A stretch of 64,000 bases of DNA from Candidatus Obscuribacterales bacterium (lineage in GTDB: Bacteria; Cyanobacteriota; Vampirovibrionia; Obscuribacterales; Obscuribacteraceae), in assembly GCA_965228855.1 (NCBI GenBank), contig CBDDIJ010000003.1, forward strand, positions 3,456,001 to 3,520,000, read 5' to 3'. Under the pieces are notes generated by a model, which saw only the letters and a program-made list of their open reading frames with translations, was not told the origin of the DNA and ran no database searches. Shown here piece by piece: positions 9,831 through 18,824 of this stretch (position 1 is its first letter; each line of letters opens with the position of its first letter). Made by a program: the position numbers and the translations under genes.

Positions 9831-11408
9831 CTATTTCGCAACGGAGCGACCATCCATCGCCGTTAACAGGTCTGGACTTTGAAGCAAACGCAAGGGCTGT
9901 TCTTGAATTTCAAGTTGAACAATGTCCTGACCGTCGGAAACGCCGAGTTCCTGAAATTTGCGGGCCGTAACAAGCACTCTTGTCTCCATTGAGCCAACAG
10001 CCTTGTTGTAGGCGTCGACAGACTTGTCGAGTCCTTTGCGAATCTCAGAGAAGTGTCCGGCCATAATACGAATTCGCTCGTATAAAGTCTTTCCGAGCTG
10101 ACTTATTGCCTGGGCATTTTCGGCCAGCTTCTCTTGCTTCCAGCCATAGGCGACGGCGCGGAGTAATCCGATAAGCGTGGTAGGCGTCGCCAAGATGACT
10201 CGTTGCTCCACGCCGACCTCGATTAGCGATGGATCCTGCTCCAGAGCAGCACTAAAGAAGGTTTCACCCGGTAAAAACAGTACGACGAATTCGGGCGAGC
10301 AGCCAAACTGCTCCCAGTACGCCTTACTCGAAAGTTTCGTCAGATGAGTACGAATTTGTCGGGCATGGTCTTTGAGACAGGCGATGCGGGTTTCGTCGTC
10401 GCGAGCCTCGAGCGCATCGAGATAGGCTTGCAATGGCGCTTTGGAATCAACAATTACGGTTTTTTGTCCAGGAAGGCGAACCAACAAATCGGGGCGAATC
10501 ACCGAATCCTCGGTCGTGATTGTCTTCTGCTCATAAAAGTCACAATGTTCGAGCATGCCTGCCATTTCGACAACTCGCTTCAGTTGAATCTCGCCCCAAC
10601 GTCCTCTCACAGTTGGAGCCCGGAGGGCGCGAACTAAATTTTGCGTTTCCTGCTGCAGGTTAGTCTGACCATTCGCCAGTGCACCAATTTGCTCCTTAAG
10701 CCCGGAGTAAGCGTTTATCCGTTCCTTCTCCAGATCCTGTATCTTCGTGTCGACGCTCAACAACGACTCCTTTAATGGCTTGACGAGTTCGTCGATAGAT
10801 TTTTGTCTTAGCTCGAGGTCGGTTTTCGCTCCCTCTTGGAACTTCTCCAGATGAGTCTTAGCCAGGTCTAAAAACGCCTGATTGTTAGACTTTAAAGCCT
10901 GGGAAGAGAGAGCTTGAAATGAATCAGTCAGTTGCTTCTGCGCTTGATCGATAAGCTTCAACTTCTCCTCGGCGGCTTGTCGTTCTTTCTCTCGAGCAGT
11001 TTCCAGAATCGATATTTGTTGTTTTAAAGCAACGACCTCTTGCGAAAACGAAGTTACCTTTTCATCGCGAAGGCGCACGTCCTGCTGGAGTTGATCGATT
11101 TTCGAATTGCGCTCTTCGGACGCAGCAAGCCGCATTTGCAATTGTGATACCAGCGAATTCCTTTCCTGCAATTGTTCGTAGTTGAGTGTATTTTGATTCT
11201 TAAGTTCATCGTACGAGCGCGAGGTTTGCGACTTAAGTTCCTCGATACTTCTATCTCGCTCTTCGAGTCGCGACTTAAGCGTTGCTTGCTCTGTTTTAAA
11301 CGCACTAAGATTACGTTCCAATTCGGCAGCCGACCTGCTACGAAAAATCAGCCAGGCAATCAGCGCTCCAACAGCGATACCGACAATTAAGCATGCAACT
11401 AATTCCAT
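9831..11408 (-). CDS. rmuC: DNA recombination protein RmuC
   Basis: N-terminal TM helix and coiled coil; [34 protein letters not shown] and [10 protein letters not shown]. Confidence 0.93.
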
Positions 11409-11435
11409 CTTTATTCTTTCACCAATTCGCTAGAG

Positions 11436-14400
11436 CTAAGCTGACATCTGGAATCCGTTTTTCGTCGTGACGGACGACTCGAACTGTCCTCTGCCAGCTT
11501 CAACAATCTGGCAAAAGAAACTAATCAGTTTCATCTGGGTTAAGGAGGTACAGGGCGTCTGTAGAAGGTCCGGACTTCCAACAACAAATGCCAGGGTCTT
11601 CGCTCTGGATATTGCCACATTCAGGCGACTTCTGCTGAACAGAAAATCCAGCCCTCTTGCAGAACCGCTTCCCTCGCTAGCACACATCGATAGTATCACG
11701 ACTGGTGCCTCCTGTCCCTGGAACTTATCTATAGACGCAACGCGCGCACCCGGAATCCGAGAGGCTATCTTTCGGACCTGCATGTTATATGGACTGACTA
11801 TAAGAATGTCTTTCATGGACAATACATTAATTGCTCCCGTCTTATCAGAAACACAGCAACGCAGAAGAGTATTAACCAGTTCTTCGATTGCATCGACCTC
11901 TTCATCGCTGGCCTGGCTGTTGCCACGATGCGGAACCGGACACCAAACGATTCCCGCTCGCTTCTGGAATCCGGAATTCAGCTGACCAGGCGGAATGAGC
12001 ACCTGATTAGAATTCTCTTCGTGCGCGACTAAACGAGAGTCATAGATTGCTGAGGATATAACCTCACAGATATCAGGATGCATTCGGCGGGTGACAGATA
12101 GAAAAATTCCCATGCTATCGGATATGGTGGCACTATCCTGTAGAAGATACTCAAGACAGGATAATCCACTATCTCCAGGATGAGAGCCCTCCGTGGGCTG
12201 CTCGAGCTGCATCTGATCGCCAAGCAACACAAGATTTCCCGTGCTTGGGCTCATTGCGGCTACGTTCGCGAGACAAACCTGTCCGGCTTCATCAACAAAG
12301 AGATAATCAACCATTCGAATAGCAGCATCCGAGCTAAACAACCAGGCGGTACCAGCAATCAAATTAAACGAATCCGGCTCTTCGTCTTTGAAAAATTTTC
12401 CTGATCCGCGTATGCGACGAACACCCGGCATATACGTTTGAGGTCCAGAGTCGGCTCCCGAAGGCGCAATCTTGGCGCCCCTCAGCGGAACGCCCTCTTC
12501 ACGAGCAACTTCGGCCACCTTTTCCAACAAATTGTCTATCGCTTTGTGAGAATTTGAAGTGATTCCGACGCGCTTTCCCTGACGCAACAATTCGACAATA
12601 GTATGGCTTGCAGTGTAAGTTTTGCCAGTTCCGGGCGGTCCCTGAATAGATAAGCAGGTCTCTTGCATACGACTTACAGCACTGACTACGGATTTCACAT
12701 CTCTAGCGTCTGCAATTGCGATCCCAACGGCCCGACCTTTGATGTTAGGTTCTTCCCGAAAGAGGAGGTCAGACAAACACTGCGGAATCCTTTGTCCCTG
12801 AGCCCAGGCGGATACCACCCGAAATATGGAACTCGCTATTATTTTGCTATCTACGAATTCATCCGGGATCAAAGAAATTTCTTCCGGAGGAACTGGTTTG
12901 CTTTTCCCCAGTAAGATCACAACGCGCCCCTTCCGGCGATCGAGAGAGGCTATGCGCGTGCTTTCCGCATTATGCGCGAACAGAACGGAGTCACCTTCTT
13001 TCATCTTTGTGTCTTGACTTGGATCAAACGAATACTCATAGCCGAACGAACGATTTATTTTAACCGGCGGATTTCTTACCCACGTCAGCTTTCCGAGACA
13101 ATCCAGATCGTCGTACAACTCATTGTCGGTCAGACTCATCCTCTCAAACCGACGCCACCACATCGGCTTATATTCACGGCGATGAAATTCAAGCAGACCG
13201 GCAAGCAGCTGTTGAACGCGCTTAGTCTCAAGATCAGCGATTTGCTCAGACGCTTTCATTAAATCAGCGGCAAGTGCGCCTGCAGGCATCAGATCGCGCA
13301 CCACAGGCGATGCCTCGATCTGAGGTCCAGAGAACTCGATACGATTCTCCTTCTGGCGGGCACGAAGCCATACCGCCAGTTGCTGCGTAGAGACACAATC
13401 CAACTCGTTGTAGTCGCGAATCTCTTTTAGAATTGGCGATTCTTGCCAGGTCAGGCCATCCTGGCATTCGATCCATCGCTCGTAGAAAACAACCGAATCA
13501 GTAGCTTTTGCTACAGTGCCACTTCGTTTGCCTCTATAGAGATGTTCTACATACTTAATCGAGTAAGACGGCTCTCCTACGCGCAGCCCCTGACGGACGA
13601 CTTGGAACAGGTCGACGAAAACCCTGTGCCTGAGGAGTTCGTCGACCTCTTCCATCCTCGTTGAATGACGACCCGCTAGTCGTCTAACAGCAGATACTTC
13701 GTAAGCCGCATAGTGATAGATATGCATTCCTGGGTCATGGCGCCAGCGCTCGTAGACCCAGTCTATGAAATTCTCGAAAGCTATCTTTTCTTCAGCTCGA
13801 TCGTGTGCCCACCAATCTTTAAATTCAATTGAATCACCGAGTTCGTAAACCACTCCCCAGAGATATTCCAACCCGCCTGACATATGAGGATATCCTTCCA
13901 TGTCAAAGTAGACGTCATTGAATGAAGGTGGCGGCAGCATTGCGAGCCCCTTGCCCGGAATTACAGGGAGCACTTCAAATGTAGTTTCACCGGCCATCTT
14001 CGAACGATTTTGAGCTCTGGCCTGTTGCTGGAGAGTATCGAACGTCTCTCGCGTCATTTTCGGAATCGATGAGGACTCGGAATTTGCGAGTTGAGTCAGA
14101 GTGTTAATTCCGGCATTCAGTAAGCGGTCGATCTGACTCTGCCGAATATTAGCGACTCGTGAGAGATGGTCTCTGTCTTCCAGAAATTTTTCCGAAACAG
14201 TCTTCCAACGGCTATGGGAACTAACAGTCCAGTCTTCTGGTGGATGGTCTTTTGAAAAACGTCCCTGAAACTCGAGGAATGAGTTCTTGAGGCGGAGATA
14301 GAGGTGATGATATTCGTGAGTACGAAATTCTTTTTGCGCGAAATCACCAAGCACCACTCTAACTGACCCTGGTAGTCGCCCTTGAATGCACTCAAGCATT

Positions 14401-14861
14401 TCTGCATAACAGCAGAGCTGGATAATGAAATGGGGTTTTGCCTTCTTCGAGAGTTTCGTGTCCCAGACTTCGTAGTGGAAATCTCCAAGCTCAGACGCAC
14501 CATCCACTTTGATGAGGAAATCGGAAAAGCCTGCAAACTCATCGGCTTGAAGAAATCCCTGATAGATGACCTCTCGGCCGTCCCGCATAGCTGCAATTGT
14601 TTCCAGTCGAGCAGATTCGCTTTTACTATGAATTTCCGCAATGTCGTAACCTTCTTTCCGTAATTGTGTGAGAAACGCTAACTCATGCGTGTTTCCGTGC
14701 TTGGCGAGAATCTCAAGACTCTCGTCACGCTCATCAGGCTTGACTTCATCCGGGTATTCAACAGAATATCGCTCCATCCAAGAGTCGAACTGTGAGTCCA
14801 TGAATGTAACGAGGTCGGACGGCGAATAAACCAGCGGACCGTCTGCTTTCATCCTGCGCAT
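11436..14861 (-). CDS. TM0106-family RecB-like nuclease fused to RNase H-like and SF1 (Upf1/DNA2-like) helicase domains
   Basis: YSPSDL start; PD-(D/E)XK motif GFSDFL...YEVWDTKL...QLCCY; YFDMEG, HIYHYAAYE and YNELDC (RNase_H_2-like); QGPPGTGKT, VDEAGQ, GDQMQL, RRMHP, PYNMQV, DKFQGQEA and RLNVAISRAK. Confidence 0.9.
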   Translation of the reverse strand: MRRMKADGPLVYSPSDLVTFMDSQFDSWMERYSVEYPDEVKPDERDESLEILAKHGNTHELAFLTQLRKEGYDIAEIHSKSESARLETIAAMRDGREVIYQGFLQADEFAGFSDFLIKVDGASELGDFHYEVWDTKLSKKAKPHFIIQLCCYAEMLECIQGRLPGSVRVVLGDFAQKEFRTHEYHHLYLRLKNSFLEFQGRFSKDHPPEDWTVSSHSRWKTVSEKFLEDRDHLSRVANIRQSQIDRLLNAGINTLTQLANSESSSIPKMTRETFDTLQQQARAQNRSKMAGETTFEVLPVIPGKGLAMLPPPSFNDVYFDMEGYPHMSGGLEYLWGVVYELGDSIEFKDWWAHDRAEEKIAFENFIDWVYERWRHDPGMHIYHYAAYEVSAVRRLAGRHSTRMEEVDELLRHRVFVDLFQVVRQGLRVGEPSYSIKYVEHLYRGKRSGTVAKATDSVVFYERWIECQDGLTWQESPILKEIRDYNELDCVSTQQLAVWLRARQKENRIEFSGPQIEASPVVRDLMPAGALAADLMKASEQIADLETKRVQQLLAGLLEFHRREYKPMWWRRFERMSLTDNELYDDLDCLGKLTWVRNPPVKINRSFGYEYSFDPSQDTKMKEGDSVLFAHNAESTRIASLDRRKGRVVILLGKSKPVPPEEISLIPDEFVDSKIIASSIFRVVSAWAQGQRIPQCLSDLLFREEPNIKGRAVGIAIADARDVKSVVSAVSRMQETCLSIQGPPGTGKTYTASHTIVELLRQGKRVGITSNSHKAIDNLLEKVAEVAREEGVPLRGAKIAPSGADSGPQTYMPGVRRIRGSGKFFKDEEPDSFNLIAGTAWLFSSDAAIRMVDYLFVDEAGQVCLANVAAMSPSTGNLVLLGDQMQLEQPTEGSHPGDSGLSCLEYLLQDSATISDSMGIFLSVTRRMHPDICEVISSAIYDSRLVAHEENSNQVLIPPGQLNSGFQKRAGIVWCPVPHRGNSQASDEEVDAIEELVNTLLRCCVSDKTGAINVLSMKDILIVSPYNMQVRKIASRIPGARVASIDKFQGQEAPVVILSMCASEGSGSARGLDFLFSRSRLNVAISRAKTLAFVVGSPDLLQTPCTSLTQMKLISFFCQIVEAGRGQFESSVTTKNGFQMSA

Positions 14862-14889
14862 GACTATGTATCTCCTGCTTACAAATACC

Positions 14890-14921
14890 AGCCTACGAAA
14901 TCAAGCTGCGAAATATCTGCA
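14890..14921 (-). promoter_or_regulatory. candidate WYL-dependent promoter/operator of the nuclease-helicase-rmuC operon (distal 6 bp displaced to 16961-16966 by the intron)
   Basis: The minus strand reads TGCAGATATTTCGCAG-CTTGATTTCG-TAGGCT, then AGGAG and ATG at 14861. With the intron removed it matches 18068-18106 at 30 of 39 positions. Confidence 0.6.
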
Positions 14922-16960
14922 GTGTCGACACGAGGTCGATTAAATGAATAGATTTAATAATCTCAGAGCACCTCCTTGCTCTGTCTCCACGTAAAAGACT
15001 CAATGAGTTCGCCCGCGTCGCAAGTAAGTGATGAACGCGATCAATAGAAGGGCACGAAAGGTCCGAAACTCTTAGCCACAATAGAGTGAAGAAGGACCGA
15101 GGGGAGACCGGCATGGTCAGGTGTGCACGAAGCACGAACACGAATCATCTTAAGTTCCGTCATTTTCGAAATGGTGAAAGTGGCTGTATGCACCATGCCC
15201 AAAAGGGAAGCGGGTTGGCTGATTGGTTTGCAGAGCAATCAGCAGGGAGGCTACACTCCCGCCGGAATACAGATGGGACCTAAACCGGTCGTTAGTCATT
15301 TAGTCGGAACGTGGTAAACCTCATGGGCTCTTGCTTTTGTTCAAGCGAGCAACCAACGCGTAAGCTGCGGCTCATTGCCTAGGAGGTAACGGATTCTGGA
15401 AAAAGCGAACGGTTCGCTGTAATGGCGGACACAGGGCAATACCCACGCTGAAAGGCGGCTGACTTCCAGAACGTGTCCCGCGAAATTACAATGAGAGGAA
15501 TTCGAACAACCGTGAAAGATGGAACCACACTTGGTATCGGAGCGGATGGAAAGCCTTTAGATTGGAGTCTCATGCCATGGGATTCAATTGACAAGTCTAT
15601 CAGAAAACTGAGACAGCGTATATTTCGTGCCATACGCGAAGGTCGACTGAATCAGGCGCGAAGCCTGATGAAACTGATGCTTCGCAGTTACTTGAACCTG
15701 CTGGATTCTGTGCGCAGAGCTACGCAAAAGAACAAAGGCAAAAAAACCGCTGGAGTCGACGGCGTAACAGCTCTAACATCGAAAGCAAGATGGAAGTTGA
15801 CCAGACAGATGGTAATGCAGACACCATGGACGGTGAAACCGACCAGACGTATTTACATACCGAAGTCAGGGAAACCCGGACAAAAACGTCCGTTATCAAT
15901 TCCCGCCCTGCGAGATCGGGTAGCACAGGCGATGATGAAGAACGCACTGGAACCCTGCTGGGAAGCTCGATTTGAGTCAACCAGCTACGGTTTTCGCCCT
16001 GGAAGAAGTCTCCACGATGCCGTTAGGCATTGCTGGGAATTATTCAAGGCGAATACGAAACGTCCGTGGATTTTAGACGCGGATATCCGTAGCGCGTTCG
16101 ACAAAATCTCACATGAACATATCCTACAAGAGCTCGGACCGGTTCCGGGACGAGATCTAATTAGGCAATGGCTCAAGGCAGGTTACATGGAGGCGGAAGT
16201 CTTTCACACCACGGACAGTGGCACACCTCAAGGAGGCATCATATCCCCGTTGCTTTTGAACATCGCCCTGCACGGCATGCAAAAAGCGCTGGGGAGCGCG
16301 TACGGATATGTCCGATACTCAGATGACCTCATTGTATGTGCACGAACCCGAGATGAGATCGAAGCTGCTAAAACGCGTATCCAAGAGTGGCTGAAGCCGC
16401 GCGGATTGGAATTGCACCCAGAGAAGACAAGAATTGTGCACATTGAGCAAGCACAAGCAAGCGACAGCGGAAGAGGTTATACGATACCTCAACCCCAAAC
16501 TTCGAGGATGGGCGAACCACTATCGACGAGCAGTAAGCAAAGAAGTCTTCGCGTACGTGTCTCACCAAGTTTGGCAGATGCTCTGGAGATGGTGCCTTAG
16601 AAGGCATCGGAAAAGAGCAAATACTGGGTGCGTAACAAATACTTTGGCTCTCCGAAAACGAAGAGCTGGAGATTTCAAGCGCACACCGATGACGGCGCCC
16701 TTTATCTTTATGACGTTAGCTCGACAGGAATCGAGCGACACATTAAGGTGCGAGGCGACGCCAGCCCGGACATTCCAGATCTGCGAGACTACTGGCATGC
16801 ACGTATCGAAGAATGTCGAACGTATTACCGCTCGCCGAAACAAGTAACAGTAAAAGCCCTGCTAAACGCTGGGTTGGATGCGCGAGCCGAATGATGGGAA
16901 AACTATCACGTTCGGTTCTAAGAGGGGCTGGGTGCGGTGACGCACCCATGCCTACTCGAC
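14922..16960 (+). mobile_element. group IIB intron (CL-like class) with defective RT ORF
   Basis: 5' end GTGTCGACACG. Stem GCTGATTG/CAATCAGC (15218-15243) presents EBS1 TGCAGA, complementary to the upstream exon end TCTGCA (14916-14921). GGAACGTGGTAAACC DI motif. DV GAGCCGAATGATGG-GAAAA-CTATC-AC-GTTCGGTTC (16884-16918). DVI with bulged A at 16954; the intron ends ...CCTACTCGAC. Confidence 0.9.
15473..16894 (+). pseudogene. group II intron reverse transcriptase/maturase, disrupted
   Basis: RVT_N-like KLRQRIFRA, GKKTAGVDG, RPLSIP, SYGFRPGRS, LDADIRSAFD, GTPQGGIISPLL and YSDD. After HPEKTRIVHIE the GFDFLG (RT7) block is missing and domain X (LNPKLRGWANHY) continues in another frame. A second 1-nt shift occurs near 16608. 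No HNH domain. Confidence 0.88.
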
Positions 16961-17033
16961 GTCGTGCGAACGAAAGATTAAAACTGCGTTTAATGACGGT
17001 GTAACTAGCTCCCGATCATGTAGTTTAAGGACC

Positions 17034-18005
17034 ATGAGTACCAAACTAGAGCGAGTTCTGGCAATTGACGCGGAAATCTGTCGTGGCGGATTTCCCGGAG
17101 TTCAGCACCTGTGCCAGAAATTTGAGATTTCCGAGCGAACACTCCACGACGACATTCGCTACCTGAAAGACCGCCTGGCCAGAGAAATAGTTTTCGACCA
17201 CACAAAAGGCGGATACTTCAACAGCACTCCAGATAAGCGTTTGCCGTCCTTTGAATTGTCCAGCGGTGAAATCTTTGCCCTGACACTTGGAAAGGAGATG
17301 CTATCTATATATACAGGTACATCCTTTGAGGCCACTCTTCGCTCCGCACTGGAAAAAATTTCTGAGCGCCTGCCGGAAAAGGTCAATGTCGACCCGGAAG
17401 AAATTAAATCGGTAATCCGATTTCGAGCCAGCGCAATCGTTCCCTTGAGCGCGAAGCTGTTTAGTGAAATGAATAAGGCATGCGATCTGGAGCAACAGAT
17501 CGACTTGACTTATTTTGCGGCAAGCAAAGGCGAAACCACCTCGCGCATAATTAATCCTTACTGCGTGTTGCACGACCGCGGCACCTGGTATGTGGTGGCA
17601 TACTGCAATTCGCGTAAAGCGCTTCGCATGTTTGCGCTGCATCGTATTAAGGACTACAAGATTCTCGACACAAACTTCGAGCCAATGCCGACTGAGGAAC
17701 TCACAGCATGGATTGATGCGGCATTCCAGATCGAGCATGGCGAGCGTACCTACCAGGTGATCATCAAGTTCGCTGCGCACTCGGCAAGATATATTAGAGA
17801 ACGGTCCTGGCATCCGCAGCAAGAGCTTGAGGATTTTGAAGACGGCAGTTGCAAGTTGTCTTTCCCAGCGGCAAGCCTGGACGAAGTTTTTCGCTGGCTG
17901 GCGCCATATGGTTCCGACGCTATTGTGATGGAGCCGCCGGAACTTCGGAAGCTGGTGATCGATGCGGCTAAGGAAACGCTCGAACAATACAACGTCTCCG
18001 TTTAA
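17034..18005 (+). CDS. WYL-domain transcriptional regulator (wHTH-WYL-WCX, PafBC/DriD-like)
   Basis: N-terminal HTH (LCQKFEISERTLHDDIRYL), WYL core (RIINPY...WYVVAYC...RMFALHRI) and WCX-like tail (RSWHPQQ...WLAPYGSDAIVMEPPELR). AAGGA RBS. Confidence 0.93.
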   Translation: MSTKLERVLAIDAEICRGGFPGVQHLCQKFEISERTLHDDIRYLKDRLAREIVFDHTKGGYFNSTPDKRLPSFELSSGEIFALTLGKEMLSIYTGTSFEATLRSALEKISERLPEKVNVDPEEIKSVIRFRASAIVPLSAKLFSEMNKACDLEQQIDLTYFAASKGETTSRIINPYCVLHDRGTWYVVAYCNSRKALRMFALHRIKDYKILDTNFEPMPTEELTAWIDAAFQIEHGERTYQVIIKFAAHSARYIRERSWHPQQELEDFEDGSCKLSFPAASLDEVFRWLAPYGSDAIVMEPPELRKLVIDAAKETLEQYNVSV

Positions 18006-18067
18006 ACCATTATATTGATGCGGTTGACATCAACTATTTAGCAGAAAAAACTTTTTCGAACGATTTT

Positions 18068-18105
18068 CACGACTGCGAATATTTCGCAGTCGTGTTTTGT
18101 AAGCT
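18068..18105 (+). promoter_or_regulatory. 27-bp palindromic operator plus -10 hexamer (candidate WYL-activated promoter)
   Basis: CACGACTGCGAA-TAT-TTCGCAGTCGTG has perfect 12-bp arms. TAAGCT lies exactly 10 bp after TCGCAG. No canonical -35 at the expected spacing. Confidence 0.7.
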
Positions 18106-18205
18106 GTTTATACAAGGTCGGAAATGCACTGAAGGATTGCAAGGACGGTGGATTGCTGACTGAGACCTGAAGACCGTTGCTGATGATAGAAAGGGATTGG
18201 GACCG

Positions 18206-18454
18206 ATGTTTCTAACGCCAGAGCAATTGCAACTAATACAAGATGCACTCGAATATTCGTGTACTGCTTTGTCGGACGAATTCGAGCAGAACAAACACAG
18301 CCGTGAAGCTGACGAAATTCAGCGCTCCGTTTTGGTATACGGCAAACTGCGAAAGTACAACAAGCTTTTAAACGACATTCGAAAGAGCCTGCCTGCACCC
18401 CCTACGATTCGGGAGAACAATGTTCTTGTTCTCGCCGCTAGCAGAGGGAGGTAG
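18206..18454 (+). CDS. small hypothetical helical protein (82 aa), candidate WYL target
   Basis: ATG at 18206 after AAGGGA; begins MFLTPEQLQLIQDALEYSC. Flanked by the palindromic promoter and a terminator. Confidence 0.65.
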   Translation: MFLTPEQLQLIQDALEYSCTALSDEFEQNKHSREADEIQRSVLVYGKLRKYNKLLNDIRKSLPAPPTIRENNVLVLAASRGR

Positions 18455-18494
18455 TATCGACTAATCTCAACCACGCAATGACAGTCTAATTATC

Positions 18495-18538
18495 ACGAAT
18501 CCGAGAAGTGTTATGAGCCTTCCCGGATTCGTCTTTTT
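18495..18538 (+). terminator. rho-independent terminator
   Basis: ACGAATCCGAGAAG / CTTCCCGGATTCGT stem (13 of 14 paired) followed by CTTTTT. Confidence 0.7.
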
Positions 18539-18635
18539 GCATGGAGCATGGCTTATAAAAAAGACTTTTCCACTCGCCCTTCCTAAAAATCGCCTCTCGA
18601 ATATAGAACAAGCATGTCAAAAACTTCTAACTAGA

Positions 18636-18824
18636 ATGGACGCTCCCATGACAGCTCTTGCAAACACTCTCGAACGCATCGCTCTTAATCTAGAGCAGGA
18701 GCAAGTGTTTACTGAAATCATCTTCGATGAGTATGAGTATCTTCTGGAACTTGCAAACGATGTTTACATCGCATCGCTGGAAACCCATCTGGAAACAATG
18801 GAAAACATTCGCCCGATCCACTAG
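18636..18824 (+). CDS. small acidic hypothetical protein
   Basis: 3' part of ORF 18513-18824, downstream of the terminator; amphipathic acidic helix (LERIALNLEQEQVFTEIIFDEYEYLLE). Confidence 0.4.
   Translation: MDAPMTALANTLERIALNLEQEQVFTEIIFDEYEYLLELANDVYIASLETHLETMENIRPIH

Follow-up and report, generated by a model that had tools for sequence, protein, structure and literature searches.

A predicted WYL-activated promoter element and its defence-biased regulon in Obscuribacterales

The DNA considered here, hereafter the window, is a 64-kb stretch (C3:3456001-3520000) of the 8.2 Mb genome (label G000) of a Candidatus Obscuribacterales bacterium, a non-photosynthetic relative of cyanobacteria; it holds a gene for a WYL-domain regulator, on each side of which lies a copy of a palindromic promoter element, the WYL box. 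An earlier note on this DNA had proposed that the two promoters, sites A and B, define an undescribed DNA-damage regulon switched on by the WYL protein. The regulator (17034..18005, plus strand) has 323 amino acids (aa), is a predicted activator and combines a helix-turn-helix of the winged type (wHTH), a helix bundle, a WYL and a WCX domain. Site A, read on the minus strand, is interrupted by a group II intron (14922..16960, plus strand): the retained part of the box lies at 14901..14924, the displaced native outer half at 16961..16966 (minus), and the predicted -10 hexamer of promoter A, TAGGCT, at 14890..14895 (minus), 10 nucleotides (nt) past GCAG. The first gene behind site A, also on the minus strand, codes for a TM0106-family nuclease fused to an SF1 helicase (11436..14861; TIGR03491 above cut-off, RNase_H_2, AAA_11/12) that partly resembles Mokosh MkoA (E 6e-54); the second is rmuC (9831..11408, minus; Pfam PF02646, E 1e-103), separated from it by the 27-bp gap reported earlier, and both genes are named by Pfam/NCBIfam. 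rmuC lies downstream of TM0106 in the relatives G007 and G020, not in two other relatives, and it is the first gene behind a box in G016 and G050. On the other side of the regulator, site B (18068..18094, plus) is a near-perfect 27-bp palindrome that is kept in relatives and is followed by a predicted -10 hexamer, TAAGCT (18101..18106, plus), again 10 nt past GCAG, with the same spacing in orthologues. Its predicted target is an 82-aa protein (18206..18454, plus), whose orthologues are 66-88 aa long and which has no Pfam match; its best atlas match, at 0.79, is uninformative, and neither this protein nor the 173-aa Cys-rich protein described below gave an atlas match of 0.9. As the earlier note had it, the gene is closed by a terminator-like element (18495..18538, plus), made of a hairpin at 18495-18532 with a folding energy of -19.0 kcal/mol and a T run. 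Beyond it lies a 103-aa open reading frame (ORF) at 18513-18824 without a Pfam family; an acidic ORF region is also present at the relatives' loci.

The likeness between the two promoters on which the earlier note relied is confirmed: site A, once the intron is removed, and site B (18068-18106) agree at 30 of 39 positions, and both carry TCGCAG followed by 10 nt and TANNNT. Family-wide, the element reads GACTGC-N9-GCAGTC with TANNNT exactly 10 nt past GCAG. The core pattern gives 7-14 strand matches in each of the seven genus relatives (7/7), the reversed control 0-1. For the orientation count, sites were oriented by the asymmetry of the core alone, with the own genome and G007 left out; the 77 distinct sites were reduced to 57 by leaving out 3 ties and 17 poorer matches. 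TANNNT stands at N10 in 36/57 of these in the forward orientation and in 0/57 in reverse, and no other spacing between 4 and 16 has it in more than 2 of the 57. The reported lack of a canonical -35 also holds, since none of 41 training sites reaches 4/6 matches to TTGACA at a spacing of 16-18 nt. A matrix trained on other species finds seven sites of at least 25 bits in this genome, of which site B, at 42.5 bits, is the highest, and the maximum on the reversed genome is 14.5 bits; sites A and B are thus not due to chance. The literature searched contains no description of the motif, of this lineage, or of the RNA and the intron target treated below, in line with the earlier statement that the motif is undescribed, with the reserve that DdaA supplements outside this search could cover the clade; likewise, searches on WYL together with Melainabacteria and on transcription-factor motifs of Obscuribacterales gave no match, although subscription papers could hold one. 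The box was not found in the viral contigs scanned (0). As a separate observation, G004 contains two near-identical boxes (L047, L048) with the non-canonical hexamer TAACTA, one of them beside an IS1595 transposase fragment.

Presence of the element and of the regulator was compared in 104 genomes of the family. The full promoter pattern has 84 matches in 36/104 genomes (control, 3) and a WYL orthologue (E<=1e-60) occurs in 36/104; both are present in 30 genomes, the motif alone in 6, the WYL gene alone in 6 and neither in 62. Five of the motif-only genomes were searched again; three gave no homologue and two gave weaker ones. The wyl gene is often flanked by boxes, either divergent from it or pointing into it, and no box lies close to any of the other three WYL genes of this genome. 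Located behind wyl, site B (18068-18100) is in addition scored as an intrinsic terminator, and its T run is not kept in all orthologues. This flag is what favours the palindromes being RNA hairpins, or else sites of another factor, with the WYL gene as a bystander; against it, orthologous sites retain the hexamer at N10 when the T run is lost, conservation is of the sequence and not of the pairing, and presence of the element tracks the orthologue and leaves the other three WYL genes aside. Such a coincidental arrangement is the least probable of the alternatives considered.

The AlphaFold model of the WYL protein displays all four parts of the layout given above (predicted local distance difference test, pLDDT, 76; predicted template modelling score, pTM, 0.36); Pfam calls WYL and WCX only, the wHTH and the bundle being seen in the model. 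With this model as Foldseek query, PafBC and DriD are nearest (E 1e-15), ranked above CapW/BrxR (E 1e-10). Across 15 aligned homologues five residues do not vary, namely R171, Y186, R194, R198 and R204, and they are spaced like R181, Y196, R204, R208 and R214 of PafB (PMC11804915); the position equivalent to PafB R211 is Ala, so that 5/6 positions for binding of single-stranded DNA (ssDNA) are kept. The CapW/BrxR matches, the defence genes among the targets and the existence of WYL repressors of defence islands (PMC9122601) would fit a protein that binds the box and represses, like BrxR/CapW, until a ligand releases it. A repressor, however, needs neither base-exact spacing nor a single orientation, and here the promoters have no -35 of their own (0/41) and the box sits at the DriD position; repression is accordingly rated very unlikely, and activation is favoured because the geometry is that of DriD and PafBC promoters, written in new letters.

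The regulator also has variants. In several relatives (L151, L153, L149, L086) a box precedes a shortened HTH-WYL-like gene of about 210-240 aa, and in G006 a gene of this type directly precedes the full WYL gene, possibly forming a PafBC-like pair. The four Cyanophyceae plasmid homologues examined (4/4; L260-L263) are 35-40% identical to the regulator; three lie beside type I CRISPR-Cas genes and one is Synechocystis sll5097. Upstream of these four wyl genes a related site is found, C[TG]GA-N9-GC[AC]G followed by 11 nt and TAGNNT, with a spacer one base longer. The Synechocystis unit holding sll5097 has no internal start in the table of Kopf 2014, which covers ten conditions, none of them genotoxic, and is uninformative here (file 1 of that work lay outside the search).

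The regulon reaches far beyond two promoters and leans towards defence. Elsewhere in this genome, boxes stand before two D12 (adenine) methyltransferase genes, the first (C3:31009) with a partner resembling a type II restriction enzyme and the second at C3:1744027, before a Cys-rich gene of 173 aa that belongs to no family (C2:1316695), before the remnant of a hicAB-like pair (C5:1379039) and before unannotated ORFs (C5:206083). At L088:2275-2865, on C5 of this genome, a hicAB-like pair with stops in hicA lies behind a box, and a LexA-like palindrome adjoins the other side of that box, before an unknown gene of 181 aa. Targets in relatives were read from two sets of sites (n=46 in the second), excluding those in G049, G106, G108, G110 and G117. 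This genome counted, the box stands before TM0106 in 11 genomes and before the small 82-aa gene in 13, so that the conservation upstream of orthologous helicase and small genes on which the earlier proposal depended is found; the Cys-rich gene lies behind a box in all 8 genus genomes, often with 2-4 tandem boxes. In relatives the box also precedes methyltransferases, SNase and PD-(D/E)XK nucleases and serine recombinases, as well as Wadjet I (G004), Wadjet III (G094), Zorya (G080), cas3-cas5 (G010, G082), cas6 (G015), cas1-cas2 (G076) and wyl-cas9 (G027), with DrmD-like and BrxD-like genes as second genes behind boxes.

DNA repair, the function first assigned to the regulon, is differently placed. 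The enrichment of boxes before recA and uvr genes that the earlier note anticipated failed for recA: 0/27 upstream regions, parsed from 30 recA loci, contain one, the uvr genes not having been located one by one; and none of the seven strong sites of this genome lies before recA, lexA or ssb. A separate palindrome, YRTAC-N4-GTAYR (36 matches in all, 12 intergenic), is found before lexA, ssb, ku, a dnaE-family gene and unrelated genes; because of its place at lexA it is called here a LexA-like box. In this genome its form CATAC-N4-GTATG, a candidate LexA box, stands before lexA, ssb, a dnaE-family gene, ku and a Cap4-nuclease/TPR/PIN gene (C5:843433, C3:1935723, C3:2158136, C2:2361157, C3:2168665 and C3:1656150), and recA has none. 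A repair regulon of global reach, running alongside SOS or replacing it, would draw on the TM0106 helicase and RmuC, which act on DNA, on one weak site before recJ (G006, 23 bits, hexamer CAGAAT), on one box 783 nt upstream of a ribonucleotide reductase and on two boxes before 899-aa PD-(D/E)XK proteins; with recA and lexA devoid of the box, and lexA, ssb, ku and a dnaE under a different palindrome, it is about as improbable as repression, or slightly more so. Thus, as far as sequence can tell, one half of the earlier reading probably stands, namely an activator promoter, supported by spacing, orientation, lack of a -35, co-occurrence, DriD-like geometry and ssDNA-binding residues, and the other half, a DNA-repair regulon, is not supported.

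Another class of targets is found in relatives, where 13 boxes in six genomes have no convincing ORF behind them and are followed instead by a shared element, whose leader varies and is often rich in repeats and which goes on with a long GC-rich hairpin and a conserved tail. This predicted hairpin RNA would be the commonest single target in relatives. Folding of nine copies gives z from -1.7 to -5.3; in the main helix of 17 copies, 7/12 pairs change on both sides and the covariation score is reached by 0/500 shuffles, in an alignment that was fitted to the model and of a kind that leans towards covariation. A-U/G-U exchanges favour the strand that the predicted promoter would make. In a first alignment the outer stem was not above shuffles and the main helix was missed by RNAalifold, and a short 3' hairpin is poorly supported (66% paired, no two-sided change). 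The RNA model finds 22 copies in 10/104 genomes, and 19/22 have a box of 21-45 bits 26-155 nt upstream, the maximum in 5000 random windows being 9.3. Eight copies were found by the model alone: five have a box, one a box split by the intron, and two (L215, L217) a sigma-70-like promoter with -35 and -10, overlapped by a LexA-like palindrome and without a WYL box. Searches elsewhere gave 0 matches in Rfam for 14 loci, apart from generic hairpin matches far below cut-off, 0/141 genomes drawn from the phylum, a set without positive control, and 0 matches in a metagenome scan. A viral contig (L269:1-74) starts with a 26-bit match to the model, and in some leaders (L101, L098) the short repeats GTTA, GTT and GAA are expanded, which suggests that length matters little. 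A Ro60/Y RNA reading was considered and set aside, TROVE not being found in this genome, which itself has no copy of the RNA. As a weak best guess, the hairpin could be a stress-induced decoy or a protein-binding RNA.

These RNAs bear on the nature of the signal. The protein could be an activator that responds to RNA, to a phage product or to a small nucleotide, possibly with the hairpin RNA as feedback ligand: Ala at the position of PafB R211, defence-biased targets, a structured RNA as the commonest target in relatives and the existence of a WYL factor sensing c-di-GMP (cyclic diguanylate; PMC11880434) all lean that way. On the other side, DdaA, with the same Arg-to-Ala change, still responds to UV and mitomycin C, and the two box-less RNA copies carry a LexA-like palindrome over their sigma-70-like promoter, which points to DNA damage as a common cue. 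A different signal is therefore judged unlikely, if distinctly less so than the other alternatives, and a sensor of single-stranded nucleic acid is preferred.

The intron in site A adds a further aspect. It is inserted antisense to promoter A, between TCTGCA and GTC of the box, and shows the marks of a group II intron, that is domains V-VI (Rfam RF00029 Intron_gpII at 16882-16960), a GUG-like start, an AY end and a reverse transcriptase/maturase ORF (15473..16894, plus); in the latter, RVT_N, RVT_1 and GIIM lie in separate frames, the frames changing near 16450 and 16610, so that the ORF is broken and is shorter than in the alleles of the public runs X5 and X11. The intron is single copy in this genome by blastn. 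Its computed removal is exact: G007, whose WYL protein is 100% identical, has an uninterrupted site A, and X5 and X11 contain an intron-free allele joining 14921 to 16961. A candidate exon-binding site 1 (EBS1), UGCAGA (15229..15234, plus), sits at the tip of a hairpin, has no second occurrence within the intron's first 620 nt and would pair with the last six bases of the 5' exon, TCTGCA; EBS2 could not be established. The first three bases of the intron (14922-14924) rebuild the outer half-site, giving CACTGC for GACTGC, a native variant in other genera, and site A scores 33.6 bits with the intron against 38.6 intact. Removal of the intron would thus be unneeded for a working site, since these bases restore CACTGC, and site A probably still works with the intron in place.

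The same intron lineage is found at the same base of site A in G003, as an internally deleted remnant, and, in the runs X9, X11 and X13, within the Cys-rich gene's upstream box, X9 and X13 showing both junctions; also in G003, a 3' fragment adjoins the three left-hand bases of a box ahead of an RNA copy, where one junction survives. Three different boxes are thus occupied by the lineage at one and the same base. All its known sites are boxes, these being few and two having been found by looking at boxes. Since exact TCTGCA is present in only 5-6 of 41 training boxes, targeting may be opportunistic, and, as the 3' exons at which more distant family members end are unrelated, it would be limited to this lineage; a metagenome scan for the intron start gave 0 matches. 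Group II introns of class IIC insert at terminators and attC sites. A link of group II introns with integrons is described as well (PMC7923331). The present case is like that of other repeated-target group II introns, which insert into a palindromic element that occurs many times per genome, and unlike them in that the target is a predicted transcription-factor site in a promoter. If true, targeting of a regulator site by an intron that is neutralised by its own first bases would represent a new safe-haven strategy.

The box is also carried by a 206-nt mini-element of G005 (e.g. L276:1505-1710), with 29 full or partial matches. It is inserted after TTAC in 10/10 left ends read, ends in GTCAA and holds internally a box and a -10 that point out over the right end; each copy would read into a different flank. 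The mini-element may resemble IS200/IS605 ends and TnpB guide scaffolds. It has no Rfam match, and a parent tnpB element could not be read, the contigs ending there.

Taken together, the conserved element is most likely the mark of a WYL-activated defence regulon, with a probability of about 0.8. The box would be the docking site of the WYL protein of the window, acting as a DriD-type homodimeric activator; by analogy with DriD, PafBC and DdaA, the dimer would cover roughly -39 to -23, replacing the -35 contact, and housekeeping RNA polymerase would be recruited once a ligand fills the WYL domains, the switch probably being the sensing of single-stranded nucleic acid. The predicted outputs in this genome are the nuclease-helicase/RmuC module, the 82-aa protein, the type II restriction-modification (R-M) pair and the second adenine methyltransferase, together with the 173-aa Cys-rich protein, the hicAB-like remnant and one unknown unit, and core repair would stay under LexA. 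The group II intron would use the box as a homing site at little cost, given its antisense insertion and the rebuilt half-site. Several points weigh against this reading. The upstream tandem boxes of the Cys-rich gene have no -10; the targets include genes outside defence, such as those for a glycosyltransferase, a VWA protein and an amidohydrolase, as well as many units without annotation; and the hairpin RNA is found neither in this genome nor in G007. Four motif-positive genomes gave no WYL homologue with this query (G082, G106 and G108 at E<=1e-8, G110 at 1e-60 only), and the tallies overstate independence, the genomes being kin and the patterns partly derived from genomes that were counted, and are therefore given no weight as p-values. 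Finally, identity to DriD and PafBC is about 20% with a model pTM of 0.36, and one Arg of the ssDNA-binding pair essential in PafB is replaced, so that the ligand may differ.

A wider scenario, rated at somewhat less than an even chance as a whole, is an alarm regulon of Obscuribacterales in which the DriD-type WYL activator runs anti-phage defence and LexA repair, the commonest output, a new family of stress-induced hairpin RNAs, can be rewired between them and the operator is used by selfish elements, namely the homing intron, which rebuilds it, and an IS605-type mini-element that would borrow it to fire a guide-RNA-like transcript. The regulon, if correctly read, adds the non-photosynthetic sister group of cyanobacteria to the range of WYL activator promoters and would be useful for decoding WYL specificity. 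As a handle for finding defence genes, the box points, in addition to R-M, Wadjet, Zorya and Cas, to the 82-aa protein, the 173-aa Cys-rich protein and the RNA as candidate components of defence or alarm. Moreover, the system may represent the intermediate state that has been proposed for DdaA, in which defence belongs to WYL and repair to LexA.

Known WYL systems offer several counterparts. DriD of Caulobacter crescentus acts with fixed spacing and no -35, and its promoter oligonucleotides carry, by our own count, a 4-N7-4 site with 11 nt to a -10-like hexamer (PMC13004042). The system of the window shares with it the wHTH-helix bundle-WYL-WCX layout, a 4-N7-4 palindrome over the -35 position in promoters devoid of a -35, 11 nt from the inner half-site to the -10 and a site in a divergent gap that points away from the regulator gene; conversely, the site is TGCG-N7-CGCA instead of CGAC-N7-GTCG, identity is about 20%, the targets are mostly in defence and the first Arg of the WYL pair is Ala. 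DdaA is a WYL activator of R-M, Zorya and CRISPR-Cas in Moraxellaceae (PMC12392091, PMC13010146), and, compared by description only, is alike in having a box before these three kinds of system and in the Arg-to-Ala change (PMC12392091); the window system resembles the basal state of DdaA, in which LexA keeps core repair. However, the DdaA motif, CGWCA-N5-TGWCG, lies about 50 bp before the start whereas the present box is centred near -31, and DdaA has taken the place of LexA and governs recA, uvrA and ssb, of which there is no sign here; no name of the lineage was found in the one DdaA supplement searched. PafBC, with the motif tGTCgg(N10)tA(N3)T (PMC8635444), shares the N10 to TANNNT and 5/6 ssDNA-binding positions (PMC8635444, PMC11804915), and differs in being a heterodimer on a half-site (-26) with another motif and a repair regulon, whereas here there are one close gene and a full palindrome. 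In SiwR of mycobacteria (PMC10693628) a homodimer acts on a palindrome before a divergent neighbour, an arrangement similar to the one predicted here. The kind of system is therefore one already described in DriD, DdaA, SiwR and PafBC; what is new, judged from the letters of the promoters, is the recognition sequence, in a geometry that equals that of DriD and PafBC promoters, and the case is set apart by its division of tasks with LexA, by the RNA family and by the elements that parasitise the operator.

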